Origin: Clostridiaceae bacterium
GTDB lineage: Bacteria; Bacillota; Clostridia; Oscillospirales; Acutalibacteraceae
Length of the DNA stretch: 64,000 nucleotides
Reading direction: 5' to 3'
Assembly: GCA_021769555.1 (NCBI GenBank)
Contig: JAETSR010000007.1
Span: forward strand, 32,017 to 96,016
Both the position numbers and the translations under genes were made by a program. Positions within the stretch are counted from its first letter, which is position 1. Each line of letters opens with the position of its first letter. Positions 480 through 63,117 of the stretch are shown piece by piece. The notes under the pieces were generated by a model, which worked only from the letters and a program-made list of their open reading frames with translations, searched no databases and was not told the DNA's origin.

Positions 480-808
480 TTTATCAGCCCGTGGACCGCC
501 ACGGCGGTGTCATAAAGATTGGGCGCGCAGCCGTACACCGGTATCCCCTGCATGTCGGCCCGCTTCTTTGCGTCCGCGTCCAAAGCCGAGTCCTCGCAGA
601 GGACTATGCAGCTGGTGTCGGCCAGGGCCGCCACGGCTATGGCGTTTAAGTTCCCCATCACCGTCAGCCAGACGTTCCCCGCCTGGGCCCGGCCCATGAC
701 CCAGCTAAGTAAATCCCCCACATAGCAGCCGTCTATCTCATTGTCCTGGCCGTCCTCCCCGGCTAAAAGCTTCCAGCCAAGGGCAGCGGCCATCTCTCTC
801 ACAGTCAT
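476..808 (-). CDS. DRTGG-domain protein
   Basis: GCYVGDLLSWVM and LTVMGNLN pattern of stand-alone DRTGG proteins; operonic overlap. Confidence 0.8.
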   Translation of the reverse strand: MTVREMAAALGWKLLAGEDGQDNEIDGCYVGDLLSWVMGRAQAGNVWLTVMGNLNAIAVAALADTSCIVLCEDSALDADAKKRADMQGIPVYGCAPNLYDTAVAVHGLIK

Positions 809-2121
809 TCTCCATCCTCCTTACTGGGGGTCCAGCCCTCAAGCTCGCCCAGGGTCTCGGCCACCTTCTGCATCTGCTTGCGGTACACGAACACACAGTC
901 GGTCTTCCTGCACGCCCCCTTCACCACGTCCTCGGCAAAGGCCCGGCAGGTGGGCGCGCCGCAGGCCCCGCAGTCCAGCCCCGGCAGCTCCTCCTCTATA
1001 TTGTCTATCTCCACCATCATGCGCATGGCCTCGCCCAAATCCGATGAGAGGGTCATAACGTTGGAAAATTCCAGCTCCTCCTCCCACTCCATCTCCGTGG
1101 GCACAGGCCCCCCGGCCAGATGGTTCTGGCTCACCGGCAGGTACTTCCTCAGCCTCTGTATCCTGGCCTTTGCCACATAGGGGTTCTCGACGCAGAGCAC
1201 CCCTCCCACGCAGCCGCCCGCGCAGGCGTTGAGCTCTATAAAGTCCAGGTCCCCTATGCGCTCGTCCTCCACTTCCTCAAGCACCCTTATCACGTTCTCA
1301 ATGCCGTCGGCGGCCAGGTACTTCTCGTTTAAGAGGGCCGCGGACTCCCCGCCGCTTGTGCTCCAGCCCACGCCTATAATTCCCGAGTTGGCGATGGGCT
1401 CTATGCACTCAAGATGGTCCATCTTATGGGAGAGCTGGGGGAATACCTCGCTTATGGCTATGGCCCCGTCCACACAGGACTTTTCTATCACCAGGGGCAT
1501 TTTGATGTCCGTCACCTTCGCCGGGCAGGGGGTTATAAAGAAGCAGCCTATCTGCTCCTCGGGGAGCCCGGTCTTCTCCATGGCCTCCTTCTTAGCCATC
1601 CCCGCCGCCGTCTCCATGGGGGACTTCAATGGCAGCACATGGTCGCAGAGGTCCGGGAACCTGACCCTTATGAGCCTTACCACCGCCGGGCAGGCCGAGC
1701 TTATCACAGGCCTCGGCAGGTTCACGCCCATTTCGGTGTTGTACATCATCTTCCGGGTGGCCTCGCTCACCAGCTCCGCGGCCCTGGAGACCTCGTACAC
1801 CTGGTCGAAGCCCATCTGCCTAAGGCCCGTGAGCACATAGTCTATGTCGTCCAGATTGTTGAACTGCCCGTACAGGGTCGGGGCGGGCAGGGCTATCTTA
1901 TAGGTAAATTTGTCCAGCGCGTCCATATGGGTATACCTGGCGCGCTTGGCGTGGTGAGGGCAGATGCGTATGCACTCGCCGCAGTCTATGCAGCGCTCCG
2001 AGGCTATGAAGGCCTTGCCGTTTCGTATGCGTATGGCCTCTGTCGGGCAGCGCTTCACGCAGTTGGTGCAGCCCACGCACTTGTCCTCGTTCAGTGTGAC
2101 CGAGTGAAAGAACTCCTTCAC
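805..2121 (-). CDS. [FeFe]-hydrogenase-like Fe-S protein (2x 4Fe-4S, hydrogenase large-subunit-like domain, C-terminal FeS domain)
   Basis: CxxCxxCxxxCP twice, ISSACP, FITPCPAK, ELNACAGGCVGG, LPGLDCGACGAPTC; GTG start with SD. Confidence 0.85.
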   Translation of the reverse strand: MKEFFHSVTLNEDKCVGCTNCVKRCPTEAIRIRNGKAFIASERCIDCGECIRICPHHAKRARYTHMDALDKFTYKIALPAPTLYGQFNNLDDIDYVLTGLRQMGFDQVYEVSRAAELVSEATRKMMYNTEMGVNLPRPVISSACPAVVRLIRVRFPDLCDHVLPLKSPMETAAGMAKKEAMEKTGLPEEQIGCFFITPCPAKVTDIKMPLVIEKSCVDGAIAISEVFPQLSHKMDHLECIEPIANSGIIGVGWSTSGGESAALLNEKYLAADGIENVIRVLEEVEDERIGDLDFIELNACAGGCVGGVLCVENPYVAKARIQRLRKYLPVSQNHLAGGPVPTEMEWEEELEFSNVMTLSSDLGEAMRMMVEIDNIEEELPGLDCGACGAPTCRAFAEDVVKGACRKTDCVFVYRKQMQKVAETLGELEGWTPSKEDGE

Positions 2122-2127
2122 AGGGTA

Positions 2128-2559
2128 TCACCCCTTTCTTCCGGGAATCACCGTCATCTTCACCGTGGTGCCAACGCCCACCGTTGAGTCGATGGTCATC
2201 TCGTCGGTGTATTTCTTCATATTGGGCAGGCCCATCCCCGCGCCGAAGCCCAGAGCCCGCACGTTGTCCGGGGCCGTGGACCAGCCGGCCTGCATGGCCT
2301 GCTCCACGTCCGGTATGCCCGGGCCCTGGTCTATGAGGGCTATGTCCACCCTGTCCGGGTCAACGTCCACCACGGCCTCGCCGCCGCCGCCGTGTATCAC
2401 AAGGTTTATCTCCCCCTCATACATTGCTATAGCCACCCGGCGTATGGCGTCGGGCTCGTAGCCAAGCTTCTTGAGCTTGTGCTTCACGTCCCCCGAGGCC
2501 TCGCCAGCCCTTGTGAAGTCGTCCCCGGGCACCTGGTACTCAAGATGCAGCATGCTCAT
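2128..2559 (-). CDS. Anti-sigma regulatory factor, RsbT-like Ser/Thr kinase (HATPase fold)
   Basis: AMYEGEINLVIH, DQGPGI, GFGAGMGL; true start MSMLHLEY overlaps the upstream stop (ATGA). Confidence 0.85.
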   Translation of the reverse strand: MSMLHLEYQVPGDDFTRAGEASGDVKHKLKKLGYEPDAIRRVAIAMYEGEINLVIHGGGGEAVVDVDPDRVDIALIDQGPGIPDVEQAMQAGWSTAPDNVRALGFGAGMGLPNMKKYTDEMTIDSTVGVGTTVKMTVIPGRKG

Positions 2560-2906
2560 GATATGTCGCAGCCCCCTCTCAGACCGTTCTCGAACAGCAG
2601 CCCGCAGGCGGTGAACATGCGGTAGGGCGAGCTCAGAACCGTCATGTCCTTCATTTCGGCCAGGTCCAGCACCTGCTGGTTCACGGGCTTGCCTCTTACA
2701 AAGACGATGCAGTGCATATCCATCATCTCCGCCGTGCGCACCACCTGGGGGTTCATAAGGCCGGTCAGGAGCACCGACTGGTCCTTCACAAAGGCCAGCA
2801 CGTCGCTCATCATGTCGCTGCCGCAGGCAGTCTTTACCTCCTGCGTCAGGTCGCCCTCCACCAGAATCTGGCATTTAAGTATGTCCACGATGTCTTTTAC
2901 CTGCAT
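2556..2906 (-). CDS. DRTGG-domain protein
   Basis: CGSDMMSDVL and LLTGLMNPQVVRTA pattern. Confidence 0.8.
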   Translation of the reverse strand: MQVKDIVDILKCQILVEGDLTQEVKTACGSDMMSDVLAFVKDQSVLLTGLMNPQVVRTAEMMDMHCIVFVRGKPVNQQVLDLAEMKDMTVLSSPYRMFTACGLLFENGLRGGCDIS

Positions 2907-3032
2907 AGTTTTACCTCCTAATATTCACTTAGGGTCTGTACCCAACATTATATCATAAATTATTCTTGAGGGCAAACATTTTATGAAATTCGCCGCATTT
3001 TTCCCACAAAATGAATTAGGGCCTGTTTTTTC

Positions 3033-3061
3033 TTGCATTTTTGCTCCCCTGACGCTATAAT
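3033..3061 (+). promoter_or_regulatory. Sigma-A promoter of serC
   Basis: TTGCAT-17bp-TATAAT. Confidence 0.65.
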
Positions 3062-3119
3062 ATTGGAAAGCATACGTTTTATTATATTAGTTTGATGAAA
3101 GATTAGGAGGAAAGAAACC

Positions 3120-4205
3120 ATGTCAAGAGTCTACAATTTTTCCGCCGGCCCCTCCATGCTGCCGGTGCCGGTATTGGAGAAAGCCGCCGGCGAGCTTTTG
3201 GAGTACGGTACTACGGGCCAGTCGGTGATGGAGATGTCCCACCGCTCCGCTGCCTTCGAGCCCATCATCGCCGAGGCCCAGGCCCTCATCCGGGAGGTCA
3301 TGGGCATTCCCGAGAACTACAAGGTTCTGTTTTTACAGGGCGGGGCCTCAAGCCAGTTCGCCGCCGTGCCCATGAACCTGATGGTGAAGAACCATAAGGC
3401 CGACTATGTGCTCTCCGGCCAGTTCTCCACCAAGGCCTACAAAGAAGCCTCAAGGTACGGAGACTGCAAGGCCGTGGCTTCATCTAAAGACGACAACTTC
3501 AGCCATATCCCGGCCATTGACAAGAGCGAGCTGCGCCCCGACGCGGACTACCTGCATATCTGCATGAACAACACCATCTACGGCACCCTCTGGCACCAGC
3601 TCCCCGACACTGGCTCTGTGCCCCTGGTGGCCGATATCTCCTCCTGCATACTCAGCCAGCCGATTGACATAACCAGGTTTGGTTTACTGTATGCCGGGGC
3701 CCAGAAGAACGTGGCCCCCGCCGGGCTCACCATCGTTATCGTCCGGGAAGACCTCATAGGCGAGACCCTCCCCGGCACCCCCACCATGTTCGACTATAAA
3801 GTAATGGCCGACAACGACTCCATGTACAACACTCCCCCCTGCTGGCCCATCTATATGTGCAAGCTGGTGCTTGAGTGGATAAAGGACGACATCGGCGGCC
3901 TCGAGAAGATGAAGGAGCGCAACGAGAAAAAGGCCGGGGTCCTCTACGATTTCCTGGACAATTCCAAGCTCTTCAAGCCCTGCGCCGAGAAGGACAGCCG
4001 CTCCATAATGAACGTGACCTTCGTCACCGGCGACAAGGATTTAGACGCGAAGTTCGTCAAGGAGGCTTCAGCCGCGGGCTTCGTGAACCTCAAGGGCCAC
4101 AGGAGCGTTGGCGGTATGCGCGCGTCTATTTATAACGCCATGCCTCCCGAGGGCGTGGATAAGCTGGTGGAGTTCATGAGGGAGTTTGAGAACGCAAACG
4201 GCTGA
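3120..4205 (+). CDS. serC: Phosphoserine aminotransferase
   Basis: YNFSAGPS, EMSHRS, YAGAQKN (PLP lysine), GHRSVGGMRASIYNA. Confidence 0.97.
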   Translation: MSRVYNFSAGPSMLPVPVLEKAAGELLEYGTTGQSVMEMSHRSAAFEPIIAEAQALIREVMGIPENYKVLFLQGGASSQFAAVPMNLMVKNHKADYVLSGQFSTKAYKEASRYGDCKAVASSKDDNFSHIPAIDKSELRPDADYLHICMNNTIYGTLWHQLPDTGSVPLVADISSCILSQPIDITRFGLLYAGAQKNVAPAGLTIVIVREDLIGETLPGTPTMFDYKVMADNDSMYNTPPCWPIYMCKLVLEWIKDDIGGLEKMKERNEKKAGVLYDFLDNSKLFKPCAEKDSRSIMNVTFVTGDKDLDAKFVKEASAAGFVNLKGHRSVGGMRASIYNAMPPEGVDKLVEFMREFENANG

Positions 4206-4219
4206 TTTTACGTAAAATA

Positions 4220-4248
4220 TTGACAAGAACTGGAATTTAATGTAAAAT
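4220..4248 (+). promoter_or_regulatory. Sigma-A promoter of the small toxin mRNA
   Basis: TTGACA-17bp-TAAAAT. Confidence 0.75.
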
Positions 4249-4416
4249 GAAAGCGCCTCCCGCAGGACCTACAGCAGAATAGAGGCGGGAACGGCGCTGG
4301 ACATATATAAGCCACTTAGTAGAACGTAGAAAAGGCGGACGGTAGACCGACAAGTAAGTGCTCGGCATACGCATGCTCGTGAGATGCGGAAACCACACCG
4401 AAAGGAGGTCACGCTT

Positions 4417-4506
4417 ATGAACGCGTACGAGATTATGACAGTCATGGTGATGGTACTTCACATCGTCGTAGACCTGCTGATTGCCCTCGACGCAAAAAAT
4501 AAGTAG
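4417..4506 (+). CDS. 29-aa hydrophobic peptide, putative type I toxin
   Basis: AAAGGAGGT SD; MNAYEIMTVMVMVLHIVVDLLIALDAKNK = one TM helix plus a basic tail; not in the supplied ORF track. Confidence 0.75.
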   Translation: MNAYEIMTVMVMVLHIVVDLLIALDAKNK

Positions 4507-4593
4507 CCGCTCCCCCCAGCAAGGTGTAGCGGCTACTTAGCTCTACAAACCGGCCTACCGTCCGAACCGTGGTCCGTCCAGCGCCTTTTCTTT
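4494..4593 (-). ncRNA. Putative antisense antitoxin sRNA (about 100 nt)
   Basis: Convergent promoter at 4600-4627; 11-bp hairpin 4500-4539 followed by T6 on the minus strand; overlaps the toxin 3' end. Confidence 0.65.
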
Positions 4594-4599
4594 ATCTAT

Positions 4600-4627
4600 A
4601 TTATACCACATTCTATGTTTATGTCAA
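4600..4627 (-). promoter_or_regulatory. Antisense sigma-A promoter (extended -10)
   Basis: TTGACA-16bp-TATAAT with TGn immediately before the -10. Confidence 0.7.
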
Positions 4628-4659
4628 TACCCCAACCATAATTTGAAAGGATGATTCCC

Positions 4660-5826
4660 ATGTACAAAATACTCTGCCTCAACAAAATAAGCCCCACCGG
4701 CACCAAGCGCTTCGGCGAGAGCTATACCTTCTCCCCGGAGATGAAGGACCCCGAGGGCATACTGGTGCGCTCGGCCTCCATGCACGATATGGAACTGCCC
4801 GAGAGCCTTTTAGCCATCGCCAGGGCCGGGGCCGGCACAAACAATATCCCCTCCGAGGACTGCGCCAAGAAGGGCATAGCCGTGTTCAACACCCCCGGGG
4901 CCAACGCCAACGCCGTGAAGGAGCTGGTGCTCTGCGCGCTGCTGCTCTCCTCCCGGAAGATACCCGCCGCCATGGACTGGGTGAAGACCCTCAGGGGCCA
5001 GGGGGCCGAGGTCTCAAAGCTTGTGGAAAAGGGCAAGGGCCAGTTTGCCGGGCCCGAGATACAGGGCAAGTCCCTGGGCGTGGTGGGCCTTGGTGCCATC
5101 GGCATTTTAGTTGCCAACGCCGCCCATTCCCTTGGAATGGAGGTCTACGGCTACGACCCCTTCCTGTCGGTGGACGCCGCATGGAGGCTCTCCCGCTCGG
5201 TGCACCGCTCCATGTCCTTGGATGAAATTTACCAGAGCTGCGACTATATCACCCTGCACCTGCCCGCCACCAAGGACACCAAGGGCATGATAAACGCCGA
5301 CACCATCGGTAAGATGAAGGACGGCGTGCGCCTTCTGAACTTTGCAAGAGGGGAGCTGGTGGACACTGCCGCCCTGCTCTCTGCCCTTGAGTCCGGCAAA
5401 TGCGCCGCCTACGCCACGGACTTCCCCGCCGACGAAATGCTGGGCTGCGGGAACGTGATACCCCTGCCACACCTGGGCGCCTCCACCCCCGAGAGCGAGG
5501 ACAACTGCGCCCAAATGGCCGTGGACCAGATAAAGGAGTACATCGAAAACGGCAATATCATAAACTCCGTGAACCTGCCGAACCTCAGCATGTCCCGGGA
5601 GTCCGGCACCCGCCGTATCTGCGTGATACACAAAAACGTCCCCGGGGCCATCGCCGACTTCACCGCCGTCTGCGGCAGGGCCGGTATAAACATCGAGAAC
5701 ATGCAGAGCAAATCCAGGGGCGACTACGCCTACACCGTTTTGGATGTGACCGGCGCGGACGTCTCCCCCGCCGTCCAGGAGCTCTCCTCCCTTGAAGCGA
5801 ACATCCGGGTGCGGGTGATAGACTGA
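4660..5826 (+). CDS. serA: D-3-phosphoglycerate dehydrogenase with C-terminal ACT domain
   Basis: ARAGAGTNNI, NTPGANANAV, GVVGLGAIG, PHLGAST; follows serC. Confidence 0.95.
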   Translation: MYKILCLNKISPTGTKRFGESYTFSPEMKDPEGILVRSASMHDMELPESLLAIARAGAGTNNIPSEDCAKKGIAVFNTPGANANAVKELVLCALLLSSRKIPAAMDWVKTLRGQGAEVSKLVEKGKGQFAGPEIQGKSLGVVGLGAIGILVANAAHSLGMEVYGYDPFLSVDAAWRLSRSVHRSMSLDEIYQSCDYITLHLPATKDTKGMINADTIGKMKDGVRLLNFARGELVDTAALLSALESGKCAAYATDFPADEMLGCGNVIPLPHLGASTPESEDNCAQMAVDQIKEYIENGNIINSVNLPNLSMSRESGTRRICVIHKNVPGAIADFTAVCGRAGINIENMQSKSRGDYAYTVLDVTGADVSPAVQELSSLEANIRVRVID

Positions 5827-53410: not shown

Positions 53411-54967
53411 TTATTCCCCCTTGTCAATATCTAGGAGGAGTTTTTTTACTTCTTTCATCACGGCTACTACGGCGTCGTCCCGGTTGCTGGCGGCCTTTTC
53501 AATCTGCTGCTGCAGGCTCATAGTGAGGTTTCCAAAGTCCAACCCCGCGCTGCTCTGGCTCTTGCTATAGGCCAGCGGGATGTCTCCCCACTCCTCTGGA
53601 TAGTCCTCGGAAACCTCTCCAATAGCGCTCAGGAGAATCTGCTTGGCCTTGTTGGGTGTAAGACCGCCTGCGTTGTTACAGACGGTAAGAATTTTCACGA
53701 GGTCGTCCGGGTTGCTGATGTCCGGCTCGAGGAAGTATGCCTCCACATACTTGAACTGGTAGCCATTCAGCAGCCGGTTATTGACCGCCCAGGCAAGGCT
53801 CCTGCGCTCAGGCTGGAATACCTGCTCCTCTGTGACCTCCTGCGCTGTCTGGGCTGTTGCGCGGTTAAAGTCGGTAGTGTAGCCCACATAGAGGTCTGGG
53901 AGCTGAAAAGCAGACTGTACCTTTCGGCGGTTATTGTCCAGGTAGCCTTGGAAAAGTTCATCCTTTTGGAGTATGCTTGCAAGGTCTTTGATTTCGACCT
54001 TTGGCTTGTCCTGCTGGTCAAAGTCTGTCCGGGCGTCGGTCGCCTCTGTTTCCAGAATGATAAAAGCGTGTTGTCCGGCCTCTCCTTTGATTTCGTCCAT
54101 GTAGTGCTGTAGTTTCTCGTAGCTCTCGTCGGTGAGGGTTCCGCCCTCTACCATAATGAGCAGCGGCGTGTGTCTCCCGTTCCGGAAGTAGTTGTTATTG
54201 AGGTTTTCAGCCCTCCGGCTGCCGTCTACACCGAGAATCTGGCCTATCCAGCGGACGGTGCCGTATGGCTTAGTGCCGATAGCAAACTCCATAATCTCGT
54301 TTGCCTGATATGTTAATTCCAGCGTCTGCCCGTCTTCCAGGTACTTGCCATCCCGCATATCCATAATGCGAGGGTCGCCAAACTCCCTAAAATAGACGGT
54401 CTTCCCGCCTACATCCTGCTTATACTTGCAGAATTTCTTTTGGAAGACCTGAGCTTGGCCGTGATGATAGTATGTGGTGGAGACATAGGGCTCTAAAGGC
54501 CGGGTCTTTTGTATACTGGGGGTCTCTTTGAGAAATTCAATCTGGGTGACCTCTCCTATCGCATTGCGTATAACCTCAATGTAAGAAATGCCGTATGTCT
54601 CCCGGGCTTCGATGATGTCCTCAAACACCTCTTTGGTGTCCTGCTCGATGTTCAACAGCTCGATAATCTCCTGGGCCCTCTGGAACTCTGCGGCCATTTC
54701 CGGCGTTTCCTCGACGTCCTCTATGTATCTTACGCCGATACCAAACCCGGCAATATTGTTCTTATAGGCCCGTATGCACTGGGGAAGGATGGTGCTATTC
54801 TCCACCAATGCTTCAAGCCCCAGCATATCGTTTACGGGGGTTATCCAATCCCCTGCGTTGCGTGCCTCCTGAGTGGTGATTTGGGTTGGAGTTTCTGCTT
54901 TCTGTACGGGGGCCTGCTGCCTCTCCTTGATAACTCGTACCTGCATAGCTGCTTTGGCTTTAGGCAC
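53411..54967 (-). CDS. Portal protein
   Basis: YFRNGRHTP, FNRATAQTA, VFQPER; follows the terminase. Confidence 0.9.
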   Translation of the reverse strand: MPKAKAAMQVRVIKERQQAPVQKAETPTQITTQEARNAGDWITPVNDMLGLEALVENSTILPQCIRAYKNNIAGFGIGVRYIEDVEETPEMAAEFQRAQEIIELLNIEQDTKEVFEDIIEARETYGISYIEVIRNAIGEVTQIEFLKETPSIQKTRPLEPYVSTTYYHHGQAQVFQKKFCKYKQDVGGKTVYFREFGDPRIMDMRDGKYLEDGQTLELTYQANEIMEFAIGTKPYGTVRWIGQILGVDGSRRAENLNNNYFRNGRHTPLLIMVEGGTLTDESYEKLQHYMDEIKGEAGQHAFIILETEATDARTDFDQQDKPKVEIKDLASILQKDELFQGYLDNNRRKVQSAFQLPDLYVGYTTDFNRATAQTAQEVTEEQVFQPERRSLAWAVNNRLLNGYQFKYVEAYFLEPDISNPDDLVKILTVCNNAGGLTPNKAKQILLSAIGEVSEDYPEEWGDIPLAYSKSQSSAGLDFGNLTMSLQQQIEKAASNRDDAVVAVMKEVKKLLLDIDKGE

Positions 54968-56360
54968 TCTTTTTCACCCCTTTGCTTTTTGGCGGTTTTA
55001 CTGGCAAGCAGAGAAGCAAAACACAGTCGGCCTCGTCAGGGGAGGGCTGCCCGCGCTTCTTTACCTCTTTCTTGCTCTCTATTTTTATCTTGCTGGCCTC
55101 TGTGAGCTCGTACTTGCGCCCGGAAAGCTGGGCCACCAGGTCGTCGTCGTCCGGCAGTATGAGCTCTACTGGCTTTTTATTGCCCTCCTCGTCGAAGGGC
55201 TGCAGGAGCTTCTTTACCACCGACATCATGTAGGTGGTGCTGTCGTGGTAATATTTGTGCTTGATTCGCTGGCCGAACTTGACCGGGTATACCTCAAGCC
55301 ACCAGAAACGCTCCGGGTCACCTCTCTTGACCTGTCGGAGGCGGTCAACGACGCCTCCACCCACGCCCCCGTCGTCTACCTTAACCGGTATGGGGCTGGT
55401 GAGCTTGTAGCGCCGCACTAGCTCCTCTCCGAGCAGGATAATGTCGTCTGCGGTCTTCATGGTGTCCTGCCCCTGGCGCTTTTTGTGGAATTGGGCCTGC
55501 TCGTCTACCTTGTAGCCGATAACGGTCTTGTCGTCTCCGAACCGGGCGACGTCGCACCCAATATGTACGAGGTGCGGCTCCGGGCGGGGGACATATTCCG
55601 TGTGGATTGACCGTTCCACCAGAGATATTGGGATAAATATATCGTCTTCCTGCAAGGGAAACTCCCCGGCGACACGGACGCGGAACACGTCGCTGTCTTC
55701 CCCGTACATCTGGATGATGGTGTTGACAAAATCTTGCGGCACCCGGGCGCTTTTCCTGCCATCTATGTGAAATCTAGCGTAGTTGGCGCGGTTCTTGTTA
55801 TGGCTGTCGTAGAAGAATCCCGAAAGCTGCGTAGGGTTCCCGCACATAAGCAGTCTGGCCCCTGGCGTGGATAGTGCGCCCAGAACGGGCTCGAATATGC
55901 TGTCTGCCACGCCGCTGGCCTCGTCGATGATAAATAAAAGGTCTTCCGCATGAAAACCTTGGAGTGCGTCGGGCTTGCTGGCCGTTCGGGCGACGGCAAA
56001 CCATTCCTCCGGGTACCCTTTCATATAGACCTTCTCTTTGGTCCATACCAGCTCATTGGCAAGGGCCGGATTGCTACGCATCCACTTGCTGACCTCAGCC
56101 CAGAGGATGTCGAATAGCTGGTGTTGCGTCGGGGCGGTGCAGGGTATCTTTGGAAATGGGCGGGTTGCCAAAAACCAAATTATCGTCCATGCCTCGACTG
56201 CGCTCTTTCCGACGCCGTGGCCGCTCCTCACGGTCGTCATGGGATTGGCGGCCACGCTACGGAGAATTCTCGCTTGGTCTTGGTCTGGGGTGGCCCCTAT
56301 GATGTCCTCCACAAACTCCACCGGGTGCTCGGCGTAGTAAAATACGGCCTCCTCGTCCAT
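54960..56360 (-). CDS. Terminase large subunit
   Basis: RSGHGVGKS, IIDEASG, GNPT, GCDVARFGDDKT, SPDEAD. Confidence 0.95.
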   Translation of the reverse strand: MDEEAVFYYAEHPVEFVEDIIGATPDQDQARILRSVAANPMTTVRSGHGVGKSAVEAWTIIWFLATRPFPKIPCTAPTQHQLFDILWAEVSKWMRSNPALANELVWTKEKVYMKGYPEEWFAVARTASKPDALQGFHAEDLLFIIDEASGVADSIFEPVLGALSTPGARLLMCGNPTQLSGFFYDSHNKNRANYARFHIDGRKSARVPQDFVNTIIQMYGEDSDVFRVRVAGEFPLQEDDIFIPISLVERSIHTEYVPRPEPHLVHIGCDVARFGDDKTVIGYKVDEQAQFHKKRQGQDTMKTADDIILLGEELVRRYKLTSPIPVKVDDGGVGGGVVDRLRQVKRGDPERFWWLEVYPVKFGQRIKHKYYHDSTTYMMSVVKKLLQPFDEEGNKKPVELILPDDDDLVAQLSGRKYELTEASKIKIESKKEVKKRGQPSPDEADCVLLLCLPVKPPKSKGVKKSA

Positions 56361-56365
56361 CAGGT

Positions 56366-56860
56366 TTACTCTCCCATCCGCCTCTTGTATGCTGATACTA
56401 TGGTCTCTGCCAGACTAGATGTCTGCGTGTCGTCCCTGGGGGCTGCTGCGGCCTCGTCTTTTTGTACTTCCCTTTCGAGGCGTATACCCTCAGTGATAAA
56501 TCGCAGAATGTCTTTGGGCTCCATGTCTTCTATGTCCAGATTGTTCAAGGCCTCGACGGCCTTTTTTTGCAGGAAAACGGCGGTTTTAAGCTGCCGTTCC
56601 CGCGCTTTCTTGATTTCCTGCTGTTTGGCTGCGAACTCTTTCCGCTGCAGCTCTGTATCGTATTCACGGCTCCTCTGCTGCCAGTTCCATGTGCTGCTCC
56701 ACCGGCTTATCAAAGTGTTGCTTTTGCCTAACTTTTGCGCAACTTTCCGTAAACTGCGCTCAGAGCCCATTTCAAGGTAGAGGTAAAACGCCTCATAGGC
56801 CGGTGGGCTCTCCTTTGGCTGGCGCTCCCAGGGCTTTTCAGTCTTACTTTGTCTCGCCAT
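56366..56860 (-). CDS. Terminase small subunit
   Basis: WERQPKES...RSLRKVA HTH; precedes TerL. Confidence 0.8.
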   Translation of the reverse strand: MARQSKTEKPWERQPKESPPAYEAFYLYLEMGSERSLRKVAQKLGKSNTLISRWSSTWNWQQRSREYDTELQRKEFAAKQQEIKKARERQLKTAVFLQKKAVEALNNLDIEDMEPKDILRFITEGIRLEREVQKDEAAAAPRDDTQTSSLAETIVSAYKRRMGE

Positions 56861-58145
56861 TTCCCCCCTCTCCTTTTAGCGCAAATTTATATACTATGTC
56901 GCCGTTTGCGTCTCTCCCTATGGGCCGTAGGATTCCTCCATAGCCTTTGGCTGGGCTGGTACCCTTGCTGGGGGTGTTCCAGTTATCCCGGAGGAACTGC
57001 GCCATAGTAGTGTCGTAGTTGAGGGCTCGGGCCTTATTGCTGCCGGTGTTGTAACCGGCTGCTCCGCACCAGGGGAAGGAAAAGTAGCGGTCTATGCCCT
57101 CTTGGATGTCAGAGAAGTGTACCTCCCCTTTCTCTCTGGCTGTTATTATCGCCTGCCCTATATTGCCCTGCTGGCTGACGCCCCACTCCGGGGGGACGCC
57201 GCAGCAGTTGCAAGCGTCGTTACACTCGCGGCAAAATGCGTCGCTGACGTGGAAACGCATACCAAGGCTGTGGACGTACTCCCGCATTTCATGGATGATG
57301 GGGGCCTTGATTGCTCTGTTCAGCCTTTTGTACCCATGCTGCTTGCTGTTCTCCATGTAATATTTGTGGATGTCGAAGCCGCAAACTTTGCTCATTTCGG
57401 CGTACCTCTTTTTGAGGTTGTCGTCCGCTCTGGCCTCCATGCAGAAAAACTCTGTGGTAACACTGTCGGCTCCTGCCTCTTTTGCCATGCTGATAAGCTG
57501 CTTGAAGTCGGAGGACACGCCTATGATAAAAGGCCGGAGCCGGAGCGTAACGTGTACGCCTATGTCTGCGAGCCTCTTTATAGCTGCTATTCTCTCCTCC
57601 GGGGAGGGAACACCCTTTTCAATCCTCCTGGCCTTTTCCTTGTCGGCGGTGATGATGGATATTTTGACGTGCCAGTTGTGGGTATGCCTGCGGAAAAGTG
57701 TCATGTACCGCTCGTCCTCAGTCCACCACGCCGCCTTTGTGCTGAATGATAGGGGATAGTCTATCTTGTCAAAGTAACGCAGTAGCTCCAAGGTCACGCC
57801 ATGCCTGCGTTCCCATTCGTCGAACTCGTCCGCGAGGCCGCCCCACTGCATGATACGCCGGTTCTGGATATATGGGAAGAATTGCAGCTCGCTTTTGGTG
57901 ACGCCTTGGCGATTGTTTTTGATAGCGTTCTCAAAGAGGGCTATAACCTTCTGAGGATTCACGCACCTGGGCTGCCCGTCAAGATATCCCTCTACAACAT
58001 GGCTCTTTTGGAAATAAGAAAAGCAGTAGAGGCAGTTGTAGGCGCATTTGCTGTAGGTGTCCATGCTCATAGGCATGGAGCAGTCCGGAATTTCCATGCT
58101 CCATCTGGGAGAGCTATAGTCCTGCTTTAATGGCTTTTTCTCCAT
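56844..58145 (-). CDS. Radical SAM protein (SPL-like)
   Basis: CAYNCLYC (CxxxCxxC). Confidence 0.88.
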   Translation of the reverse strand: MEKKPLKQDYSSPRWSMEIPDCSMPMSMDTYSKCAYNCLYCFSYFQKSHVVEGYLDGQPRCVNPQKVIALFENAIKNNRQGVTKSELQFFPYIQNRRIMQWGGLADEFDEWERRHGVTLELLRYFDKIDYPLSFSTKAAWWTEDERYMTLFRRHTHNWHVKISIITADKEKARRIEKGVPSPEERIAAIKRLADIGVHVTLRLRPFIIGVSSDFKQLISMAKEAGADSVTTEFFCMEARADDNLKKRYAEMSKVCGFDIHKYYMENSKQHGYKRLNRAIKAPIIHEMREYVHSLGMRFHVSDAFCRECNDACNCCGVPPEWGVSQQGNIGQAIITAREKGEVHFSDIQEGIDRYFSFPWCGAAGYNTGSNKARALNYDTTMAQFLRDNWNTPSKGTSPAKGYGGILRPIGRDANGDIVYKFALKGEGGNGETK

Positions 58146-58157
58146 TGCGCCGTCTCC

Positions 58158-58745
58158 TTATTCCTCAATGCGAATAACCGTAGTGCTGCTGCCCTCGTGT
58201 ATCTTGTCGGCAAATCCATTCCCTGCGGCCCACTCCCGCGCTAAATCCTCGTTAGCGAACACCAGCGTCACGACGTAGCTGCCACCGACGACCGTTTCCT
58301 CAGTATCTTCGTCCCACTCGCTGTAATCTTCTTCATCCTCCCATAAATCCTCATTGCTTGCGAGAATGACGGCAATCTCGTCCTCGGAAAAGCCGGATAG
58401 GGTCGCTACCTCGCGGTCATAACCGGAAAGAAGCTCCTCGAGCTTTTCGTAATCCCACTGGCCCTTGATTTTGTTGAGGGCGACATTGAGAAGCTTTTCC
58501 TCCTCCTCTGGGAGGTCTACTATCGAGCAGGGGACAGTCTCATAGCCAAGGCTTTTCAACACCTTGAGCCTTTGGTGCCCGCCGACGACATTGCCGGTTC
58601 TCTTGTTCCAGACTATGGGCTCCACGTTACCGAACTGCACAATGCTGTTGCGCAGCTTTTCCCACTCGGGCATACCCGGTTCCAGGGAGATTCTGGGGTT
58701 GTAAGCAGCCTCGTTAAGCTGCTCCACCTTAATATCTTGTACCAT
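58158..58745 (-). CDS. ParB/Srx N-terminal domain protein (paralog 2)
   Basis: YNPR, EPIVWN, VGGHQR, LNVALNKI. Confidence 0.88.
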   Translation of the reverse strand: MVQDIKVEQLNEAAYNPRISLEPGMPEWEKLRNSIVQFGNVEPIVWNKRTGNVVGGHQRLKVLKSLGYETVPCSIVDLPEEEEKLLNVALNKIKGQWDYEKLEELLSGYDREVATLSGFSEDEIAVILASNEDLWEDEEDYSEWDEDTEETVVGGSYVVTLVFANEDLAREWAAGNGFADKIHEGSSTTVIRIEE

Positions 58746-59382
58746 AGTCAAGTCCCTCCATCCTGATAGTGATATTCCTTGCGGCGCTCCCGTATTCTGC
58801 CTCAACTCCCCGGTCGTGCAGCCACTTTTCTGCAAGCTCCTTAGTGGGGAAGGAGAGGAATATGTTGAACTCCTTGAGGGCCGCAGGCTTTTCGGGTGCC
58901 TCTGCGGGTTCTTCATCGTCTTCATCCGGCGGAGTGTCCTCTGCGGCGCTGCCGTCCTCCTGATTGTTGTCGTCGTCGGCGGGGAGGCCGGTGTCAAAAA
59001 GGTTGTCCAGTTCCTCCGCCGAGAATCCGGTGAATTTTATGTCTTCGGGCTCAAACTCGCTGAACAGAGCCTCGAGTTTCCGGTAGTCCCATTCGCCGTC
59101 TACCTTGTTTAAGGCCACGTTGAGGAGCTTTTCTTGCTCCTCGTCCACCTCGATTAAGACGACCTCAACCTCTGTGACGCCGCTGGCCTTGAGAACATTG
59201 AGGCGCTGGTGGCCGCTCACGAGGTTGCCCGTGGTCTCGTTCACAACAAGAGGTTCCGCGACGCCAAAGCGCTCCATGGAGTTTTTAAGAGCCTCATACT
59301 CTTTATCCCCGGGTTGCAGCGTTACTCTGGGATTGTACGCCGCCGGGCGAATGTCTTTAAGCTTCAAAATGGCTGTTTTCAA
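58729..59382 (-). CDS. ParB/Srx N-terminal domain protein (paralog 1)
   Basis: YNPR, EPLVVN, VSGHQR, LNVALNKV. Confidence 0.88.
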   Translation of the reverse strand: MKTAILKLKDIRPAAYNPRVTLQPGDKEYEALKNSMERFGVAEPLVVNETTGNLVSGHQRLNVLKASGVTEVEVVLIEVDEEQEKLLNVALNKVDGEWDYRKLEALFSEFEPEDIKFTGFSAEELDNLFDTGLPADDDNNQEDGSAAEDTPPDEDDEEPAEAPEKPAALKEFNIFLSFPTKELAEKWLHDRGVEAEYGSAARNITIRMEGLDYGTRY

Positions 59383-59427
59383 TTTTCTCCGCCACCTTTC
59401 TCCTTTTTAGGTCTTATGCTATGTTCA

Positions 59428-60183
59428 CTAAGATTTCCCTAAATGTATTTTCTTGTCTTTCAGCACCATGCGGACTTCATTTGCTTTTCTGCTGTTTGGT
59501 GCCAAAATATCCGGGTACATTCTGCACAGCCTTGCGACCGTTTTCGTGTGCGCCGTTGAGTGCCATGCTTCGAAACAGCCTCCGGCGTTTGTTCTATGTT
59601 TTGCGTTTACGGACAAAAAATTATACCGCAGTATTGGCTTTCCGTTGTTCAAAACCCTTGCACACAGTTCTATGTCCTCTTTTGCCGAGAATGTTTCGTT
59701 GAATGTGAGTATTTGTCCTTTAGGAAAACCAACAGCCGTATTTACTGTTACTTTCGTGCTTATGCTTCTCTGCATGAAAAAGGCGTTGTTTACAGGGTAA
59801 ACTCCCCACAACGGAGCTGCTGCTCGCCTTGCCTGTTCAAAACATTTTCCTATTGTCCTATCAAACGTCTCTTTATCAGATATCGGTTTGATTGTGTCCC
59901 CTTTAAGCTGTCCGATATAGTTTACGTCGTCGTCCAACATGAAAATGTCGTGAACGCCTTTGAAGTGACGCAAGATGTTATTCCTTGCCTTAGCTATCCC
60001 ATCTGCTTTCGCATAAATAACGCCACACTTATCCACGTACCTCTGGTACTTCTCGTAATCCTGCTCCGTCTGGACAAAGATAAAAACCCTGTCTTTTTCA
60101 ACTCCCATATCGGACAGATATTTAAGTGTTCCTTGCGTCTCCGCCCTCTGATATGACGGTATCGCAATTATGAATTTCTCCAT
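59428..60183 (-). CDS. GT-A glycosyltransferase (TAGT/GREB1-like)
   Basis: IAIPSYQR, GIAKARN, MLDDD, EDIEL, TNAGGC. Confidence 0.75.
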   Translation of the reverse strand: MEKFIIAIPSYQRAETQGTLKYLSDMGVEKDRVFIFVQTEQDYEKYQRYVDKCGVIYAKADGIAKARNNILRHFKGVHDIFMLDDDVNYIGQLKGDTIKPISDKETFDRTIGKCFEQARRAAAPLWGVYPVNNAFFMQRSISTKVTVNTAVGFPKGQILTFNETFSAKEDIELCARVLNNGKPILRYNFLSVNAKHRTNAGGCFEAWHSTAHTKTVARLCRMYPDILAPNSRKANEVRMVLKDKKIHLGKS

Positions 60184-60583
60184 TTTCAATTCTCCTCCGC
60201 AGCTCTGTTGAGCTTAACCCGTGCGCCCTCCGGTTGTAAAATATTTCTATCCCAAGCTCTCCGCACGTTGCTTTCCCCGTGAAATCTTTTCCTTTGTAAT
60301 CCTCACCCACAAACCTTATATCTATTGGCAATGACCTCAATGCCAAATCTAAATCCGCCTCGCTTTCAAGCGGAACAACCTCGTCAACCGATCTGTGACA
60401 AACAAGTTGTGTATATCTCTCGAAAAGGGACTGTACAGGTTTGTTTTTCCACGCCCTGTCTTTTGTAGGGTCTGTTATTATTCCGACATAGAGATAATCA
60501 CAATGTCTCTTGCACTCGTCGAGCATTAAGGCGTGTCCGGCGTGCATAAGGTCGCCTACCACTGATGTAAAGCCAATCCTCAT
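60122..60583 (-). CDS. Cytidylyltransferase (TagD-like)
   Basis: GDLMHAGH (HxGH), PVQSLFER, RAHGLSSTELR. Confidence 0.9.
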   Translation of the reverse strand: MRIGFTSVVGDLMHAGHALMLDECKRHCDYLYVGIITDPTKDRAWKNKPVQSLFERYTQLVCHRSVDEVVPLESEADLDLALRSLPIDIRFVGEDYKGKDFTGKATCGELGIEIFYNRRAHGLSSTELRRRIENGEIHNCDTVISEGGDARNT

Positions 60584-61647
60584 ATCTCTGCCTCCAGTTC
60601 TTTTGCCTTTCTCCATATCGTTTTCCTATCCTCGTCCCTCTCAAAATAACCAAGCATACGAATCCAGTGTACAGCCTCCATTGCCTTTGTAATTCCACTC
60701 AAATTGTTTTCAGTCAGTATCTCGGATAACTCCGATAGCCGTGCGTCGTAATTATTTGGCCTCTCTCCTCCGTGTAGAAGCTGCTCTCCTCCGTCGAGTG
60801 AAAATCTCAGTTTTGCGAAGTCGTTCAAAAATGTGCTGTATTCTGTCCGTGCGCTTGGGTCGATAAGATATAATCCATTTTCGGAAAAAATGGTGTTCGA
60901 CAGGGACAGGTCTCCGTGGCTGAACGTGCTGTTTTTTCTAAATACATCTGCATTCTCTTTTAGGTACGCCAAAAGCTTTTCGAAGCAACACTCCCAGCCT
61001 GCAAGCGCAAGCCTCTTTTTTGTAAAAGAAATATACCCGTGTGCGTCGAACGGCGTAGCTGCTCTGTATAGGCTCATTAACATAATTTGTGATACAATTT
61101 GTCCCAATTCCGCCTTGCCAAGTTTCTTTTTGTTGCCTGCTTCGCCGTTTAGGTACTCTAAACTTATCGTATCAAGCACTACTGAAAAGACTTTCGGGGT
61201 CTTTATTCCAATTTCCTGCGCCTTTGCGTACCAGTCCGCCTGCTGCCTTGCGTCTCTGCATTTCTTGATTACACTGTTTCCTGCCCGGTAAACCCCCGAG
61301 CCACTATTGCCTTTAAGCATACCGTATTCACCGCGCAAGAACTCTGCAAGGGAGATTCCTTTGTCGTCCACATAGAGGTCTCCAAGCGGTTTACCAAATA
61401 TCAGCCTGTCATACGGTACATTGTGCTTTTCAAGCCAATCCTCTATCTGCTCCCTGTTTCGTTTCTCTATGAGGGCTAAATCTCCCTTGCATGAATTTTG
61501 CCCTCGTGCGCTGTATATGTAAATCTCGCAGCCGTCCCCTTTGAGTTTTCTTATCTTTTCGACTGTTTCCATAACGGGAACTGCATTTGCAAAATCCCTA
61601 TTGTAATGGACGCTTATCGTGTCGTCTAAATCGAAAACAATCCTCAT
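60580..61647 (-). CDS. Fusion of HAD phosphatase (EcbF/BcbF-like) and APH-type kinase
   Basis: FDLDDT...GKP...YVDDK; GNSGSGV, HGDLSLSN, LIDP. Confidence 0.82.
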   Translation of the reverse strand: MRIVFDLDDTISVHYNRDFANAVPVMETVEKIRKLKGDGCEIYIYSARGQNSCKGDLALIEKRNREQIEDWLEKHNVPYDRLIFGKPLGDLYVDDKGISLAEFLRGEYGMLKGNSGSGVYRAGNSVIKKCRDARQQADWYAKAQEIGIKTPKVFSVVLDTISLEYLNGEAGNKKKLGKAELGQIVSQIMLMSLYRAATPFDAHGYISFTKKRLALAGWECCFEKLLAYLKENADVFRKNSTFSHGDLSLSNTIFSENGLYLIDPSARTEYSTFLNDFAKLRFSLDGGEQLLHGGERPNNYDARLSELSEILTENNLSGITKAMEAVHWIRMLGYFERDEDRKTIWRKAKELEAEI

Positions 61648-61755
61648 GGCAGCCTCCTCCCGTTTCGTTTCGCGTCGGAAATTTTCGTAAAAAAGCACCG
61701 CCCCATGGGGTTCCCCATTGAGCGGCGCATTTACAATCATAAATTTACATTTTAT

Positions 61756-61785
61756 ATTGTATCATAAGGGGCTGTGCTGTGTCAA
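61756..61785 (-). promoter_or_regulatory. Promoter of the modification/packaging operon
   Basis: TTGACA-18bp-TACAAT with TGn before the -10. Confidence 0.65.
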
Positions 61786-61810: not shown

Positions 61811-62503
61811 TCATAGGTTGTCTATGCCCCAAACCCCGAAAAAGAGGACGGTGAGCTCAGCGGCGCTGGTGTCAATATCCCGGTAGACGGTACGCTTGTC
61901 TATGCCCTCCTGCTGGGCAAGCTCCTCTGCGCTTTGGGGAACGTCTGAAAGGTAAAGGCCGTTGAGTATTCTCCAATGCCGCTGCTCCTCCTCTTTGTCT
62001 GAACTCGTACATTTTAGGCGGTAGCACTCAAGCATTCTTTTAACATGGGTCATAATGATTCTGGTGGTGATGTAGTTTTGCTGTATGCTCTCAACGAATA
62101 TCTCCTCGTCAGTTGGTCTCCCCATGCTACGCATGATGTCCGCAAAGTCCACATCGACCTCCTCTGCCGCCTCGGTGCTGAATACAGCGTTTTGGTAGTA
62201 TTCGTTTAGCCTGCGGTAGTTCCGAATTAGGAGCTTGGTGTTGTGATACTTCCAGTCATACTGAGCCTTGCGGTAGCTTTTACTCTCCCGTTCAATTACC
62301 CTGCGCATAGCTTTTGCCCCATGCTCGGCTCCCGTCCTAGCCCCGATTTCCGCGCCTACCTCAGCGCCGATTTTTACGGCTATGGGAATAGCCAGATTGA
62401 CAGCCGCCTGGATTTTTTCATCTACTCCTTTAACCCCTGCTTCATAGGCGGCCAAAACCGCCGCCTCAATCATTTTCTGGATGTCCAGATTGCTGTTTCC
62501 CAT
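61811..62503 (-). CDS. Putative late transcriptional regulator with C-terminal HTH
   Basis: HNTKLLIRNYR; AEELAQQEGIDKRTVYRDI; position before the packaging genes. Confidence 0.7.
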   Translation of the reverse strand: MGNSNLDIQKMIEAAVLAAYEAGVKGVDEKIQAAVNLAIPIAVKIGAEVGAEIGARTGAEHGAKAMRRVIERESKSYRKAQYDWKYHNTKLLIRNYRRLNEYYQNAVFSTEAAEEVDVDFADIMRSMGRPTDEEIFVESIQQNYITTRIIMTHVKRMLECYRLKCTSSDKEEEQRHWRILNGLYLSDVPQSAEELAQQEGIDKRTVYRDIDTSAAELTVLFFGVWGIDNL

Positions 62504-62535
62504 AGGTGTCCTCTCCTTTGCTGTATAATTTAGCG

Positions 62536-63117
62536 TTAGGGCTCGCTCTTTCCATCTGTACACAATTTTGTTTCTGGGTAGCTCCTCAAATACTGGCCTA
62601 TTCCCCGCAAAAAGTGTAGTACCCCTCCCTCAACCTTGATTTCATACTCTGGAACATCGGAGGGAGTTATGTATTTTCGCCCAAAGTGGTCTTTCATATC
62701 CCGAAAAACTGCCCACGGGATTCTGAAAAAGCGGGTAAACCGGAAGGACACCAGCACATAACAGGCTGCACCTAGCTCCAAATGCCGGTTGAGGCATTTC
62801 TCCTGCTCCACGCTTATTACAGTGCGCAGCAGTCTATCGCCGCCCGTATGCTTGGCCTCAAATACAATGGCCCTCCCGCCTGCAAGGGTTCCTTTGTAGT
62901 CGGGCTGTGCTTGCTTGGTGAAGCAGGCGAGGAATTGGCCCTTTTTGTTCCGGCTGCTCAGTGGCCTCATAGGCTCCGGGGTCTTCTCGATTTCGGCAAT
63001 ACCCTTCTGGCTGTAATAACGGCAGCTTGCCTCGATAACCTCCTCCCAATAATTACCGGCAATTTTACTGCGCCGCCCGGTTACGATTGCCTGGTAATGC
63101 TGGGCCCCGGTTCTCAT
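62536..63117 (-). CDS. recU: Holliday junction resolvase
   Basis: IEKTPEP, PDYKG, FEAKHT, EQEKCL. Confidence 0.88.
   Translation of the reverse strand: MRTGAQHYQAIVTGRRSKIAGNYWEEVIEASCRYYSQKGIAEIEKTPEPMRPLSSRNKKGQFLACFTKQAQPDYKGTLAGGRAIVFEAKHTGGDRLLRTVISVEQEKCLNRHLELGAACYVLVSFRFTRFFRIPWAVFRDMKDHFGRKYITPSDVPEYEIKVEGGVLHFLRGIGQYLRSYPETKLCTDGKSEP

Follow-up and report, generated by a model that had tools for sequence, protein, structure and literature searches.

The 64,000-nt window analysed here (the whole stretch from positions 32,017 to 96,016 of contig JAETSR010000007.1, Clostridiaceae bacterium assembly GCA_021769555.1) carries a prophage of a gut-type anaerobe, in which six coupled minus-strand genes run from 61647 or 61740 down to 56844 behind one strong promoter and are followed by the terminase genes terS and terL. 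A sequence-only reading had proposed a phage DNA-hypermodification operon of six closely spaced genes under one promoter, upstream of the terminase, and the coordinates, the gene junctions and the promoter agree with that layout. The junctions are gaps of 12-45 nts or overlaps, among them one ATGA stop/start overlap. The motifs that had been listed as intact (DLDDT, HGDxxxxN, HAGH, DDD and CxxxCxxC) are all present in the translations.

All genes described here are on the minus strand. The first (60580-61740, with a probable start at the ATG at 61647) encodes a fusion of a HAD phosphatase and an ePK/APH-like kinase, with motifs DLDDT, HGDLSLSN and IDPS. The second (60122-60616, probable start 60583) encodes a nucleotidyltransferase (NTase) of the cytidylyltransferase fold (PF01467), with motifs HAGH and RAHGLSST. 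The third (59428-60189) encodes a GT-A-like glycosyltransferase (GT) of the TAGT family (PF20691) with the DxD motif LDDD. We refer to these three genes as the trio. They are followed by two genes for ParB-like proteins, ParB1 (58729-59382; ParB_N, phrog_620) and its paralog ParB2 (58158-58742; ParB_N), and by a gene (56844-58145) for a radical S-adenosylmethionine enzyme (rSAM) similar to spore photoproduct lyase (SPL), with the cluster-binding motif C34xxxC38xxC41 (CAYNCLYC).

ParB1 (217 aa) and ParB2 (194 aa) are 38% identical over their full length (E 7e-46), and ParB_N is matched by both, with phrog_620 and phrog_498 at around 1e-42 (2.6e-42 for ParB1 and phrog_620). The three-part build that had been read from the translations, in which an acidic linker joins an N-terminal domain to a small C-terminal one, is seen in both paralogs, with the linker disordered, and agrees with the structural model of ParB1, in which residues 1-130 have pLDDT >90, residues 132-166 are disordered, and the C-terminal domain is a beta-alpha-beta unit. 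The top fold matches of ParB1 are ParB-N domains, including those of M. xanthus and C. crescentus ParB and of CDP- and CTPgS-bound ParBs. The features of a chromosome- or plasmid-partition ParB, a central domain that binds parS and a ParA partner, are missing, as there is no helix-turn-helix (HTH) in the model and no ParA in the operon. The orthologs of ParB1 and of ParB2 stay in separate lineages across the related loci described below, with YNPR, GGHQR and NKxxGxWD invariant, and the two proteins probably form a heterodimer.

The rSAM matches the PA0069 family (5.3e-19; 68.4 bits against a cut-off of 360) and the Rv2578c family (1.2e-13; 50.8 bits against 430), and a phmmer search of the PDB sequences returns no match to it. 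The six best PDB matches of its AlphaFold model (pLDDT 75, pTM 0.81) are all spore photoproduct lyases (E 3.6e-5 to 2.5e-4, TM 0.39-0.50). SPL handles a flipped thymine and an allylic radical at the thymine methyl. In 15 aligned members of the family, which have a mean column identity of 73%, the invariant cysteines are C34, C38 and C41 together with C22, C235 and C314-C315, the last pair within the motif NCCGVPPEW. With the SplB/COG1533 proteins (PA0069, Rv2578c) the rSAM has in common the CxxxCxxC motif, a partial TIM-barrel fold and, by prediction, a DNA substrate; it differs from them in an extra C-terminal region of about 130 aa that holds the invariant NCCGVPPEW, and in its context, which is a phage late operon and not repair. 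Several rSAM homologs (P0127, P0151, P0158 and P0224) bear inteins with LAGLIDADG or HNH-like endonuclease domains, a trait also found in the Rv2578c family, for which NCBIfam has a model of the intein-containing proteins. When 1.84 billion representative sequences are searched with a profile, 2435 relatives score at E<=1e-3, of which 227 reach E<=1e-30. Another search yields 2095 sequence clusters at E<=1e-5. By tblastn at E<=1e-5 there is no similarity to Pseudomonas phage M6 or to any isolated phage, one faecal contig excepted.

The GT matches PF20691 (TAGT) at 4.2e-18, with a score of 66.5 bits where the cut-off is 27.5, and the match covers positions 2-205 of the 205 in the profile. It also matches phrog_842 at 2.1e-26, and its DxD motif lies within FMLDDDV. 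A PDB sequence search gives nothing useful for this protein. Homologs occur in mycobacteriophages and Arthrobacter phages, and Mycobacterium phage PRodriguez is among the cultured-phage matches. From its family we predict that the GT glycosylates a hydroxymethyl-pyrimidine in DNA. Its donor is probably not UDP-glucose, because the phage carries activation genes of its own.

A constant core and interchangeable modules

We compared 107 loci with a related rSAM, 48 from IMG/VR (rSAM 55-87% identical) and 59 from species genomes, and identified the neighboring genes by tblastn and iterated local HMMs over all loci. For 83 of them, at least 2.3 kb of upstream sequence is available, and we call these informative. 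A ParB gene on the same strand lies beside the rSAM gene in 81 of the 83 and is twinned in 51, and in Clostridia-type loci TerS comes directly after the rSAM. ParB-ParB-rSAM is thus a conserved core, and the AT-rich trio of the window belongs to a set of at least five downstream modules that can replace one another. The most frequent module (33 loci) has an ADDT (amino-acid:DNA transferase, formerly aGPT-Pplase), usually together with a GNAT and a P-loop kinase. A TAGT GT stands alone in 14 loci, a P-loop kinase stands alone in 11, and 11 more combine a TAGT-like GT with an rSAM-SPASM protein. Eight loci are of the window type, with NTase and GT, and have the HAD and kinase domains in the seven that are not cut at a contig end; the remaining six have no recognised partner. 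By Pfam, the accessory genes are Ploopntkinase3, ADDT, GNAT, TAGT, Radical_SAM plus SPASM, UDP-glucose dehydrogenase and APH.

Co-conservation of the six genes, which had been named as a check on the operon, is found in part. The order of the window recurs in five other loci (L012, L061, L062, L063 and L066), and two more (L010 and L064) have the HAD and the kinase as separate genes. A second TAGT-like GT is present in five of the seven. The set is not indivisible, as the core is constant and the trio can be swapped. A maximum-likelihood tree of 76 rSAMs requires at least 22 changes of accessory type. The nearest relative of the window rSAM (89% identity) belongs to a kinase-only cassette, and two sister rSAMs only 0.05 substitutions per site apart have a GT with one and a kinase with the other. 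An enzyme that remains nearly unchanged beside chemically unrelated partners points to a common upstream product and not to a tailoring role. Among the rSAM relatives there are also fusion proteins of the types TAGT-rSAM, rSAM-TAGT and Ploopntkinase3-rSAM-TAGT. These fusions, and the invariable link of the rSAM to DNA-specific enzymes, support the view that the rSAM and the TAGT GT act in one pathway.

In a locus from a Phocaeicola metagenome-assembled genome (L080, 2585-8236) the order is SAM synthetase, ParB, GATase (class-II glutamine amidotransferase), ADDT, P-loop kinase, GNAT and rSAM; the presence of a phage SAM synthetase in this Bacteroidales-type cassette fits a heavy demand for SAM by the rSAM. 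In the 11 loci with an rSAM-SPASM protein (L002-L007, L014, L030, L035, L060 and L069), this second, unrelated radical SAM protein of about 320 aa always occurs with a divergent TAGT-like GT upstream of ParB-ParB-rSAM, and a further tailoring of the base or the sugar may be its role. By the titles of the records, the loci come from anaerobes of the gut and rumen, among them Oscillospiraceae, Lachnospiraceae, Selenomonas ruminantium S137, Bacteroidales such as Prevotella, and Victivallales. Per species genome the cassette is rare, with two occurrences among 300 of the class.

The proposed donor module and the late control region

The HAD domain matches TIGR01689 (4.5e-21) and phrog_1238 (6.6e-22). 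Its top PDB match is 1xpj (4.1e-15), which also tops the list for gp81 of phage DLP3, a member of the AfhF family to which the domain is 35% identical in a pairwise comparison (E 3e-13). By tblastn it matches 359 phage records, most of them RB69- or DLP3-like. RB69 gp51 and DLP3 gp81 are analogous to AfhF, which converts arabinofuranose-1,5-bisphosphate to the 1-phosphate on the way to nucleoside diphosphate (NDP)-arabinose for DNA glycosylation (NAR 2026, PMC13326640). On these sequence matches, we assign the HAD domain to the family of AfhF and RB69 gp51, whose members act as sugar-bisphosphate phosphatases in the NDP-arabinose pathway of phages. The kinase domain has weak ePK/APH/Bud32 matches around HGDLSLSN, and the separate kinase of sister cassettes (L010) matches the kinase domain of DLP3 gp82 at 1.4e-12. 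The NTase matches PF01467 (CTP_transf_like) at 2.9e-10, rfaE_dom_II at 5.7e-16 and TagD at 3.4e-13, the last two both far under the NCBIfam cut-offs, and its PDB matches are ECT (3elb, 2.9e-10) and TagD (1coz, 3.3e-9). In all eight loci that have it, the NTase is accompanied by a TAGT GT.

The sequence-only reading had suggested a CDP-activated polyol or sugar as the donor. An activated donor made by the kinase and the NTase is retained in our analysis; an NDP-sugar now seems more likely than a CDP-polyol, because a DxD GT-A enzyme needs a glycosyl donor. The route would lead from the kinase to a sugar bisphosphate, then through the HAD phosphatase to the NTase, with the nucleotide and the sugar left unspecified. 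CDP-glycerol, CDP-ethanolamine and CDP-choline (Kennedy-type donors) rank low, as DxD GT-A enzymes move glycosyl groups and not phospho-alcohols, and the HAD domain groups with the sugar-bisphosphate phosphatases that serve the Afh pathway. ADP-heptose is a possible donor, given that rfaE_dom_II is the best NCBIfam match of the NTase, but there is no GmhA- or HldA-type gene.

Compared with the AfhE/AfhF pathway of RB69, DLP3 and HY126, the window has the same ingredients, namely a 1xpj-like HAD phosphatase, a presumed sugar kinase of the ePK type and an NTase adjoining a DNA GT, and the proposed route is the same: sugar phosphate to sugar-1,n-bisphosphate to sugar-1-phosphate to NDP-sugar. The two differ in that the window fuses phosphatase and kinase and not NTase and kinase, in that its NTase has the cytidylyltransferase/HldE-II fold and not the MurU fold, and in that it has no arabinose-5-phosphate isomerase. 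The acceptor in those phages is 5-hydroxycytosine, made before replication by a ThyA homolog.

The best cultured-phage match of the donor genes is Agathobaculum phage AB434P2 (OP172633.1), isolated on a gut anaerobe that can be cultivated, whose gp4 is a HAD-kinase 35% identical to that of the window (E 6e-55) and whose gp5 is an NTase with 72.5% identity. From 416 to 5582 this phage has in order a dUTPase-like gene, a thymidylate-kinase-like gene, the HAD-kinase, the NTase, a 328 aa open reading frame (ORF), a ThyA homolog and a 361 aa ORF. The ThyA homolog, two genes downstream of the donor pair, is annotated as a dUMP hydroxymethyltransferase. Neither of the two ORFs beside it has a Pfam or PHROG match, and a GT is not shown there. 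By its gene content the arrangement parallels that of DLP3, and the AB434P2 genome is probably glycosylated hydroxymethyl- or hydroxy-pyrimidine DNA. The donor genes thus occur in lytic AB434P2 with a pre-replicative ThyA-type source, and in the temperate phage of the window with a ParB/rSAM core.

Upstream of the six genes, a sigma-70-like late promoter (TTGACA, 18-nt spacer, TACAAT, with a TG-extended -10) lies on the minus strand at 61785-61756. The assignment is by consensus match, with 11 of 12 positions, and this is the top-scoring site between 56300 and 62700. Between the promoter and the ribosome-binding site (RBS), the 5' leader has a GC-rich, terminator-like 14-bp hairpin followed by U6 (61689-61728, minus strand). 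The leader is 111 nt long and has a folding energy of -37 kcal/mol (z -2.95), a hairpin with a T-run occurs at the equivalent leader position in eight of 11 related loci, and the hairpin may be an antitermination target. The late leader as a whole (61689-61785) resembles lambda PR'-tR', with a near-consensus promoter, a strong hairpin plus U6, and then an RBS. A strong RBS, GGGAGGAGG, precedes the ATG at 61647, and the first protein probably starts there with the N-terminus MRIVFDLDDT. We rejected the start at 61740, because the longer ORF crosses the terminator-like hairpin and has no RBS. The NTase probably starts at 60583, in an ATGA overlap with the upstream stop. Just upstream of the promoter, an HTH protein (61811-62563, minus strand; phrog_1558 6.2e-43, weak HTH_11) keeps its synteny in many related loci and may be a late regulator or antiterminator.

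Downstream, the gene for the small terminase subunit TerS (56366-56860; PF10668 7.4e-5, phrog_6299 2.4e-35) overlaps the stop of the rSAM, and it is followed by the gene for the large subunit TerL (54960-56360; phrog_2 4.2e-40, phrog_5902 5e-64) and, from the ORF translations of the window, a portal gene. The first three genes of the operon had been described as more AT-rich than the rest, and this is the case: the HAD-kinase, NTase and GT genes have a GC content of 0.43-0.46 (0.46-0.50 at third codon positions) and the genes from ParB1 through the portal have 0.52-0.57 (0.61-0.72), a difference of about 9 GC points. Two proteins of the prophage early region, given here in window coordinates on the minus strand, extend the picture beyond the window. 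A DUF5131 protein (PF07505, 2.1e-40; 64855-65904) with GCKHGCEYC, a CxxxCxxC motif, may be a second radical-SAM-like protein of the same prophage. In a protein of 1304 aa (71958-75872), an SbcD-like metallophosphoesterase is fused to an SbcC/SMC-like ATPase, and its gene adjoins that of a DnaC-like loader.

Acceptor-forming enzymes and related systems

The sequence-only reading had seen neither a TET/JBP enzyme nor a hydroxymethylase at the locus, and our searches extend this to whole genomes. Tet_JBP (PF12851) has no match in the host genome, in 15 related viral records (seven of them at least 90% complete, three with terminal repeats), in five more cassette-bearing genomes or in phage AB434P2; as a control, the same search detects gp3 of Rhodococcus phage Tonitrus at 7.7e-10. 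ThyA-type enzymes are absent from the host genome, the 15 viral records and the five further genomes, and the control for this search is matched in 10 of 14 genomes. A C5-methyltransferase occurs in three of the 15 viral records, two of which (G002/L012 and G009/L010) are relatives of the NTase plus GT type, and there is none on the contig of the window. With no TET/JBP, no ThyA-type hydroxymethylase and, in this prophage, no C5-methyltransferase, the acceptor-forming chemistry would be none of the known ones.

The same holds in a complete, terminally redundant temperate phage of 42.9 kb (with integrase, RecT and YqaJ), which has ADDT, kinase, GNAT, two ParBs and the rSAM, and among whose 42 non-structural ORFs we find neither an oxygenase nor a ThyA nor a DNA polymerase. 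The only DNA on which P-loop kinase 3 and ADDT have been characterised is DNA with 5-hydroxymethyluracil (5hmU) (PMC8989533, PMC13229309). These phages thus hold enzymes for 5hmU-DNA and no known source of 5hmU, which leaves the rSAM and its ParB partners as the only constant candidates. The window itself has no ADDT, kinase-3 or pyridoxal-phosphate enzyme.

Among the closest described systems is a subclass of the phage thymine dioxygenases (5mYOX, of the TET/JBP family) that needs a ParB-like activator (O'Toole et al., PNAS 2026, PMC13229309). The activator combines a nucleotide-binding N-domain with a C-terminal domain, lacks a DNA-binding domain, and is required on double-stranded DNA (dsDNA) only; the partners of the ParB-dependent dioxygenases are GTs, P-loop kinases, AADTs and GATases, and terminase genes are among their most frequent neighbors (PMC13229309). 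In Tonitrus (genes 1-7), for example, the order is ParB, TET/JBP, aGPT-Pplase and kinase, a few genes before the terminase gene. The loci described here are alike in the ParB build (N-domain plus small C-domain, no DNA-binding domain), in the toolkit (GT in the window; Ploopntkinase3, ADDT, GNAT and GATase in sister loci), in terminase adjacency, and in presumably acting after replication in phages without replication machinery of their own. They are unlike in that we find no Fe(II)/2-oxoglutarate dioxygenase and an SPL-like rSAM in its place, in that the ParB is usually duplicated, and in that the hosts are strict-anaerobe gut and rumen taxa. The similarity of ParB1 to the Tonitrus ParB is marginal (E 0.017). 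Judging by gene content, the partners are those of the ParB-dependent TET/JBP thymine pathways, and the rSAM with two ParB-like proteins occupies the place of the oxygen-dependent oxidase. The earlier suggestion that the ParB pair couples modification to packaging finds no support here; the published precedent is an activator of a base-oxidising enzyme on dsDNA, and by analogy a role in activating the rSAM on dsDNA is the more likely one for the two ParBs.

Mycobacterium phage PRodriguez (PP035218.1, 1-5347) has a ParB-like protein, a 'DpdA-like transglycosylase', a TAGT-like GT, a deacetylase and a P-loop kinase directly before TerL. It is a cultured-phage case of the same pre-terminase DNA-modification slot, with another base enzyme. 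A further comparison is with base J synthesis by JBP and JGT, which resembles the predicted pathway in its GT-A-like DxD TAGT enzyme and in the predicted product, and differs in that the hydroxylase partner here is not TET/JBP. We found no description of a ParB plus radical SAM DNA system in the searchable full-text literature.

Proposed pathway and competing explanations

From gene content, folds, synteny, fusions and the absence of known acceptor-forming enzymes, all of which are observed here, we think it fairly probable that the six genes specify a late, post-replicative pathway of DNA-base hypermodification, in which ParB/rSAM makes a hydroxyl handle without O2 and the GT adds to this handle a sugar from the NDP-sugar that the trio provides. 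In the pathway as we picture it, ParB1 and ParB2, which have the CTPase fold and no DNA-binding HTH, would help the SPL-like rSAM to act on double-stranded phage DNA. The 5'-deoxyadenosyl radical of the rSAM would functionalise the C5 substituent of a pyrimidine, most probably by abstracting hydrogen from the thymine methyl; the allylic radical would then be oxidised, perhaps at a second site formed by Cys22, Cys235, Cys314 and Cys315, and capture water. The product, probably 5hmU or an equivalent hydroxyl-bearing handle, would form without O2. On the donor side, the kinase domain would phosphorylate the anomeric hydroxyl of a host sugar phosphate to give a sugar-1,n-bisphosphate, the fused HAD domain would remove the distal phosphate, and the NTase would make the NDP-sugar. 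The TAGT GT would place the sugar on the new hydroxyl just before packaging, giving a base-J-like glycosylated pyrimidine, and the presumed effect is protection from restriction. A more specific proposal, which we make tentatively and would not call probable, is that ParB1/ParB2 and the rSAM are an oxygen-independent thymine C5-methyl hydroxylase, or its functional equivalent, on dsDNA. They could then be an anaerobic counterpart of the ParB-dependent TET/JBP enzymes and the first rSAM system to start a DNA base modification, feeding a base-J-like glycosylation with a phage-made, non-UDP NDP-sugar.

In this pathway all of the chemistry is inferred, as are the base that is modified, the sugar and the effect on restriction, and several points weigh against it. 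We know of no radical SAM enzyme that hydroxylates a DNA base, and the one other DNA-modifying rSAM known to us, gp53 of phage M6, is a downstream isomerase. The rSAM model is of moderate quality (pLDDT 75, with TM-scores of 0.4-0.5 to SPL). On the donor side, the kinase domain of the window is only weakly similar to that of DLP3 gp82, which is of the AfhE type (E 0.018), the NTase differs in fold from that of AfhE, and no sugar-phosphate isomerase is found in the cassette or in the gaps of the sister loci, which leaves the sugar unspecified. The trio, by its different GC content, was acquired separately and could in principle serve another target. Finally, the prophage reaches the end of the contig, so that a small part of its early region is unseen.

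The precedent of M6 gp53 suggests one alternative, in which the rSAM is a downstream tailoring enzyme that remodels the C5 attachment, the hydroxylated acceptor being supplied by an unrecognised host or phage enzyme. Phage M6 gp53 is an SPL-like rSAM isomerase in the synthesis of 5-NedU (Lee et al., NAR 2021, PMC8989533); it isomerises N-alpha-glycinylthymidine and acts after 5-HMUDK and aGPT-Pplase, on DNA whose 5hmdU comes from a ThyA-type enzyme (PMC8989533). A pyridoxal-phosphate decarboxylase also belongs to that pathway. The two enzymes are alike in that both are SPL-fold rSAMs in hypermodification clusters and gp53 works on a thymine C5 substituent in DNA, and where an ADDT, often with a GNAT, lies beside the rSAM (33 of 83 loci), a gp53-like role is possible. 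The rSAM is equally constant, however, in the 50 loci without ADDT, including those with only a GT, those with only a kinase and the six with no recognised partner. Here the rSAM is the constant element and its partners vary, with nearly identical enzymes beside chemically unrelated ones; the complete phage genomes have no ThyA, 5mYOX or other acceptor-forming enzyme, and there is no tblastn similarity to phage M6 at E<=1e-5. We regard a tailoring role for the window rSAM as quite unlikely. A different possibility is that the genes do specify a DNA hypermodification, by another primary chemistry than thymine to 5hmU: the target could be cytosine or 5-methylcytosine, or another position, or the product a direct C-S or C-C adduct, and the handle for the GT would not be a hydroxymethyl. 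A C5-methyltransferase in three of 15 related records, two of the NTase plus GT type, fits this, as does the glycosylated 5-hydroxycytosine of RB69-type phages, which have the HAD phosphatase in common with the window. Neither this contig nor most of the complete relatives have such a methyltransferase, the characterised substrates of P-loop kinase 3 and ADDT are 5hmU-DNA, and an SPL active site is suited to the thymine methyl group, so that we hold this reading to be unlikely.

It is also conceivable that the operon consists of two unrelated parts, with ParB-ParB-rSAM directed to DNA or related to packaging, and the trio a moron whose glycosylation targets would be virion proteins or a surface polymer of the host such as teichoic acid. 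The distinct GC content of the trio would agree with this, and so would the HAD domain, whose best NCBIfam match is a capsule-locus phosphatase, and the NTase, which resembles TagD and ECT. Homologs of the GT are encoded by Arthrobacter phages and by mycobacteriophages, and the latter are known to glycosylate their virions. Against this, the GT scores above the Pfam TAGT cut-off and TAGT domains are fused to the same rSAM family; the mycobacteriophage homolog of the GT has genes for a ParB, a DNA-base enzyme, a kinase and the terminase in the same block; the HAD and kinase homologs of RB69, DLP3 and HY126 feed DNA arabinosylation; the HAD-kinase/NTase pair of AB434P2 is found among nucleotide-metabolism genes; and the HAD-kinase, NTase and GT always occur within a ParB/rSAM cassette (8 of 8 loci). 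The two-part explanation is therefore decidedly unlikely, and the comparative evidence, namely the TAGT-rSAM fusions and the DNA-specific partners, sides with the earlier preference for DNA-base hypermodification over glycosylation of the virion or cell surface.

To our knowledge, all routes to 5-hydroxymethyl-pyrimidines in DNA depend on O2 (TET/JBP) or on a ThyA-type enzyme that acts before replication and is paired with a replication system of the phage. The phages described here are temperate phages of strict anaerobes with neither route, although all the enzymes for using such bases are encoded in them. From the self-contained donor module of the window a new sugar on DNA would be expected, and the module links the Afh-type logic of sugar activation in T4-like phages to temperate phages of Clostridia. 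If the ParB/rSAM core does supply the handle, it would be a new enzymatic reaction on DNA and a possible O2-free tool for writing marks like 5hmU or 5-hydroxymethylcytosine, and it would explain how abundant gut and rumen phages evade restriction.

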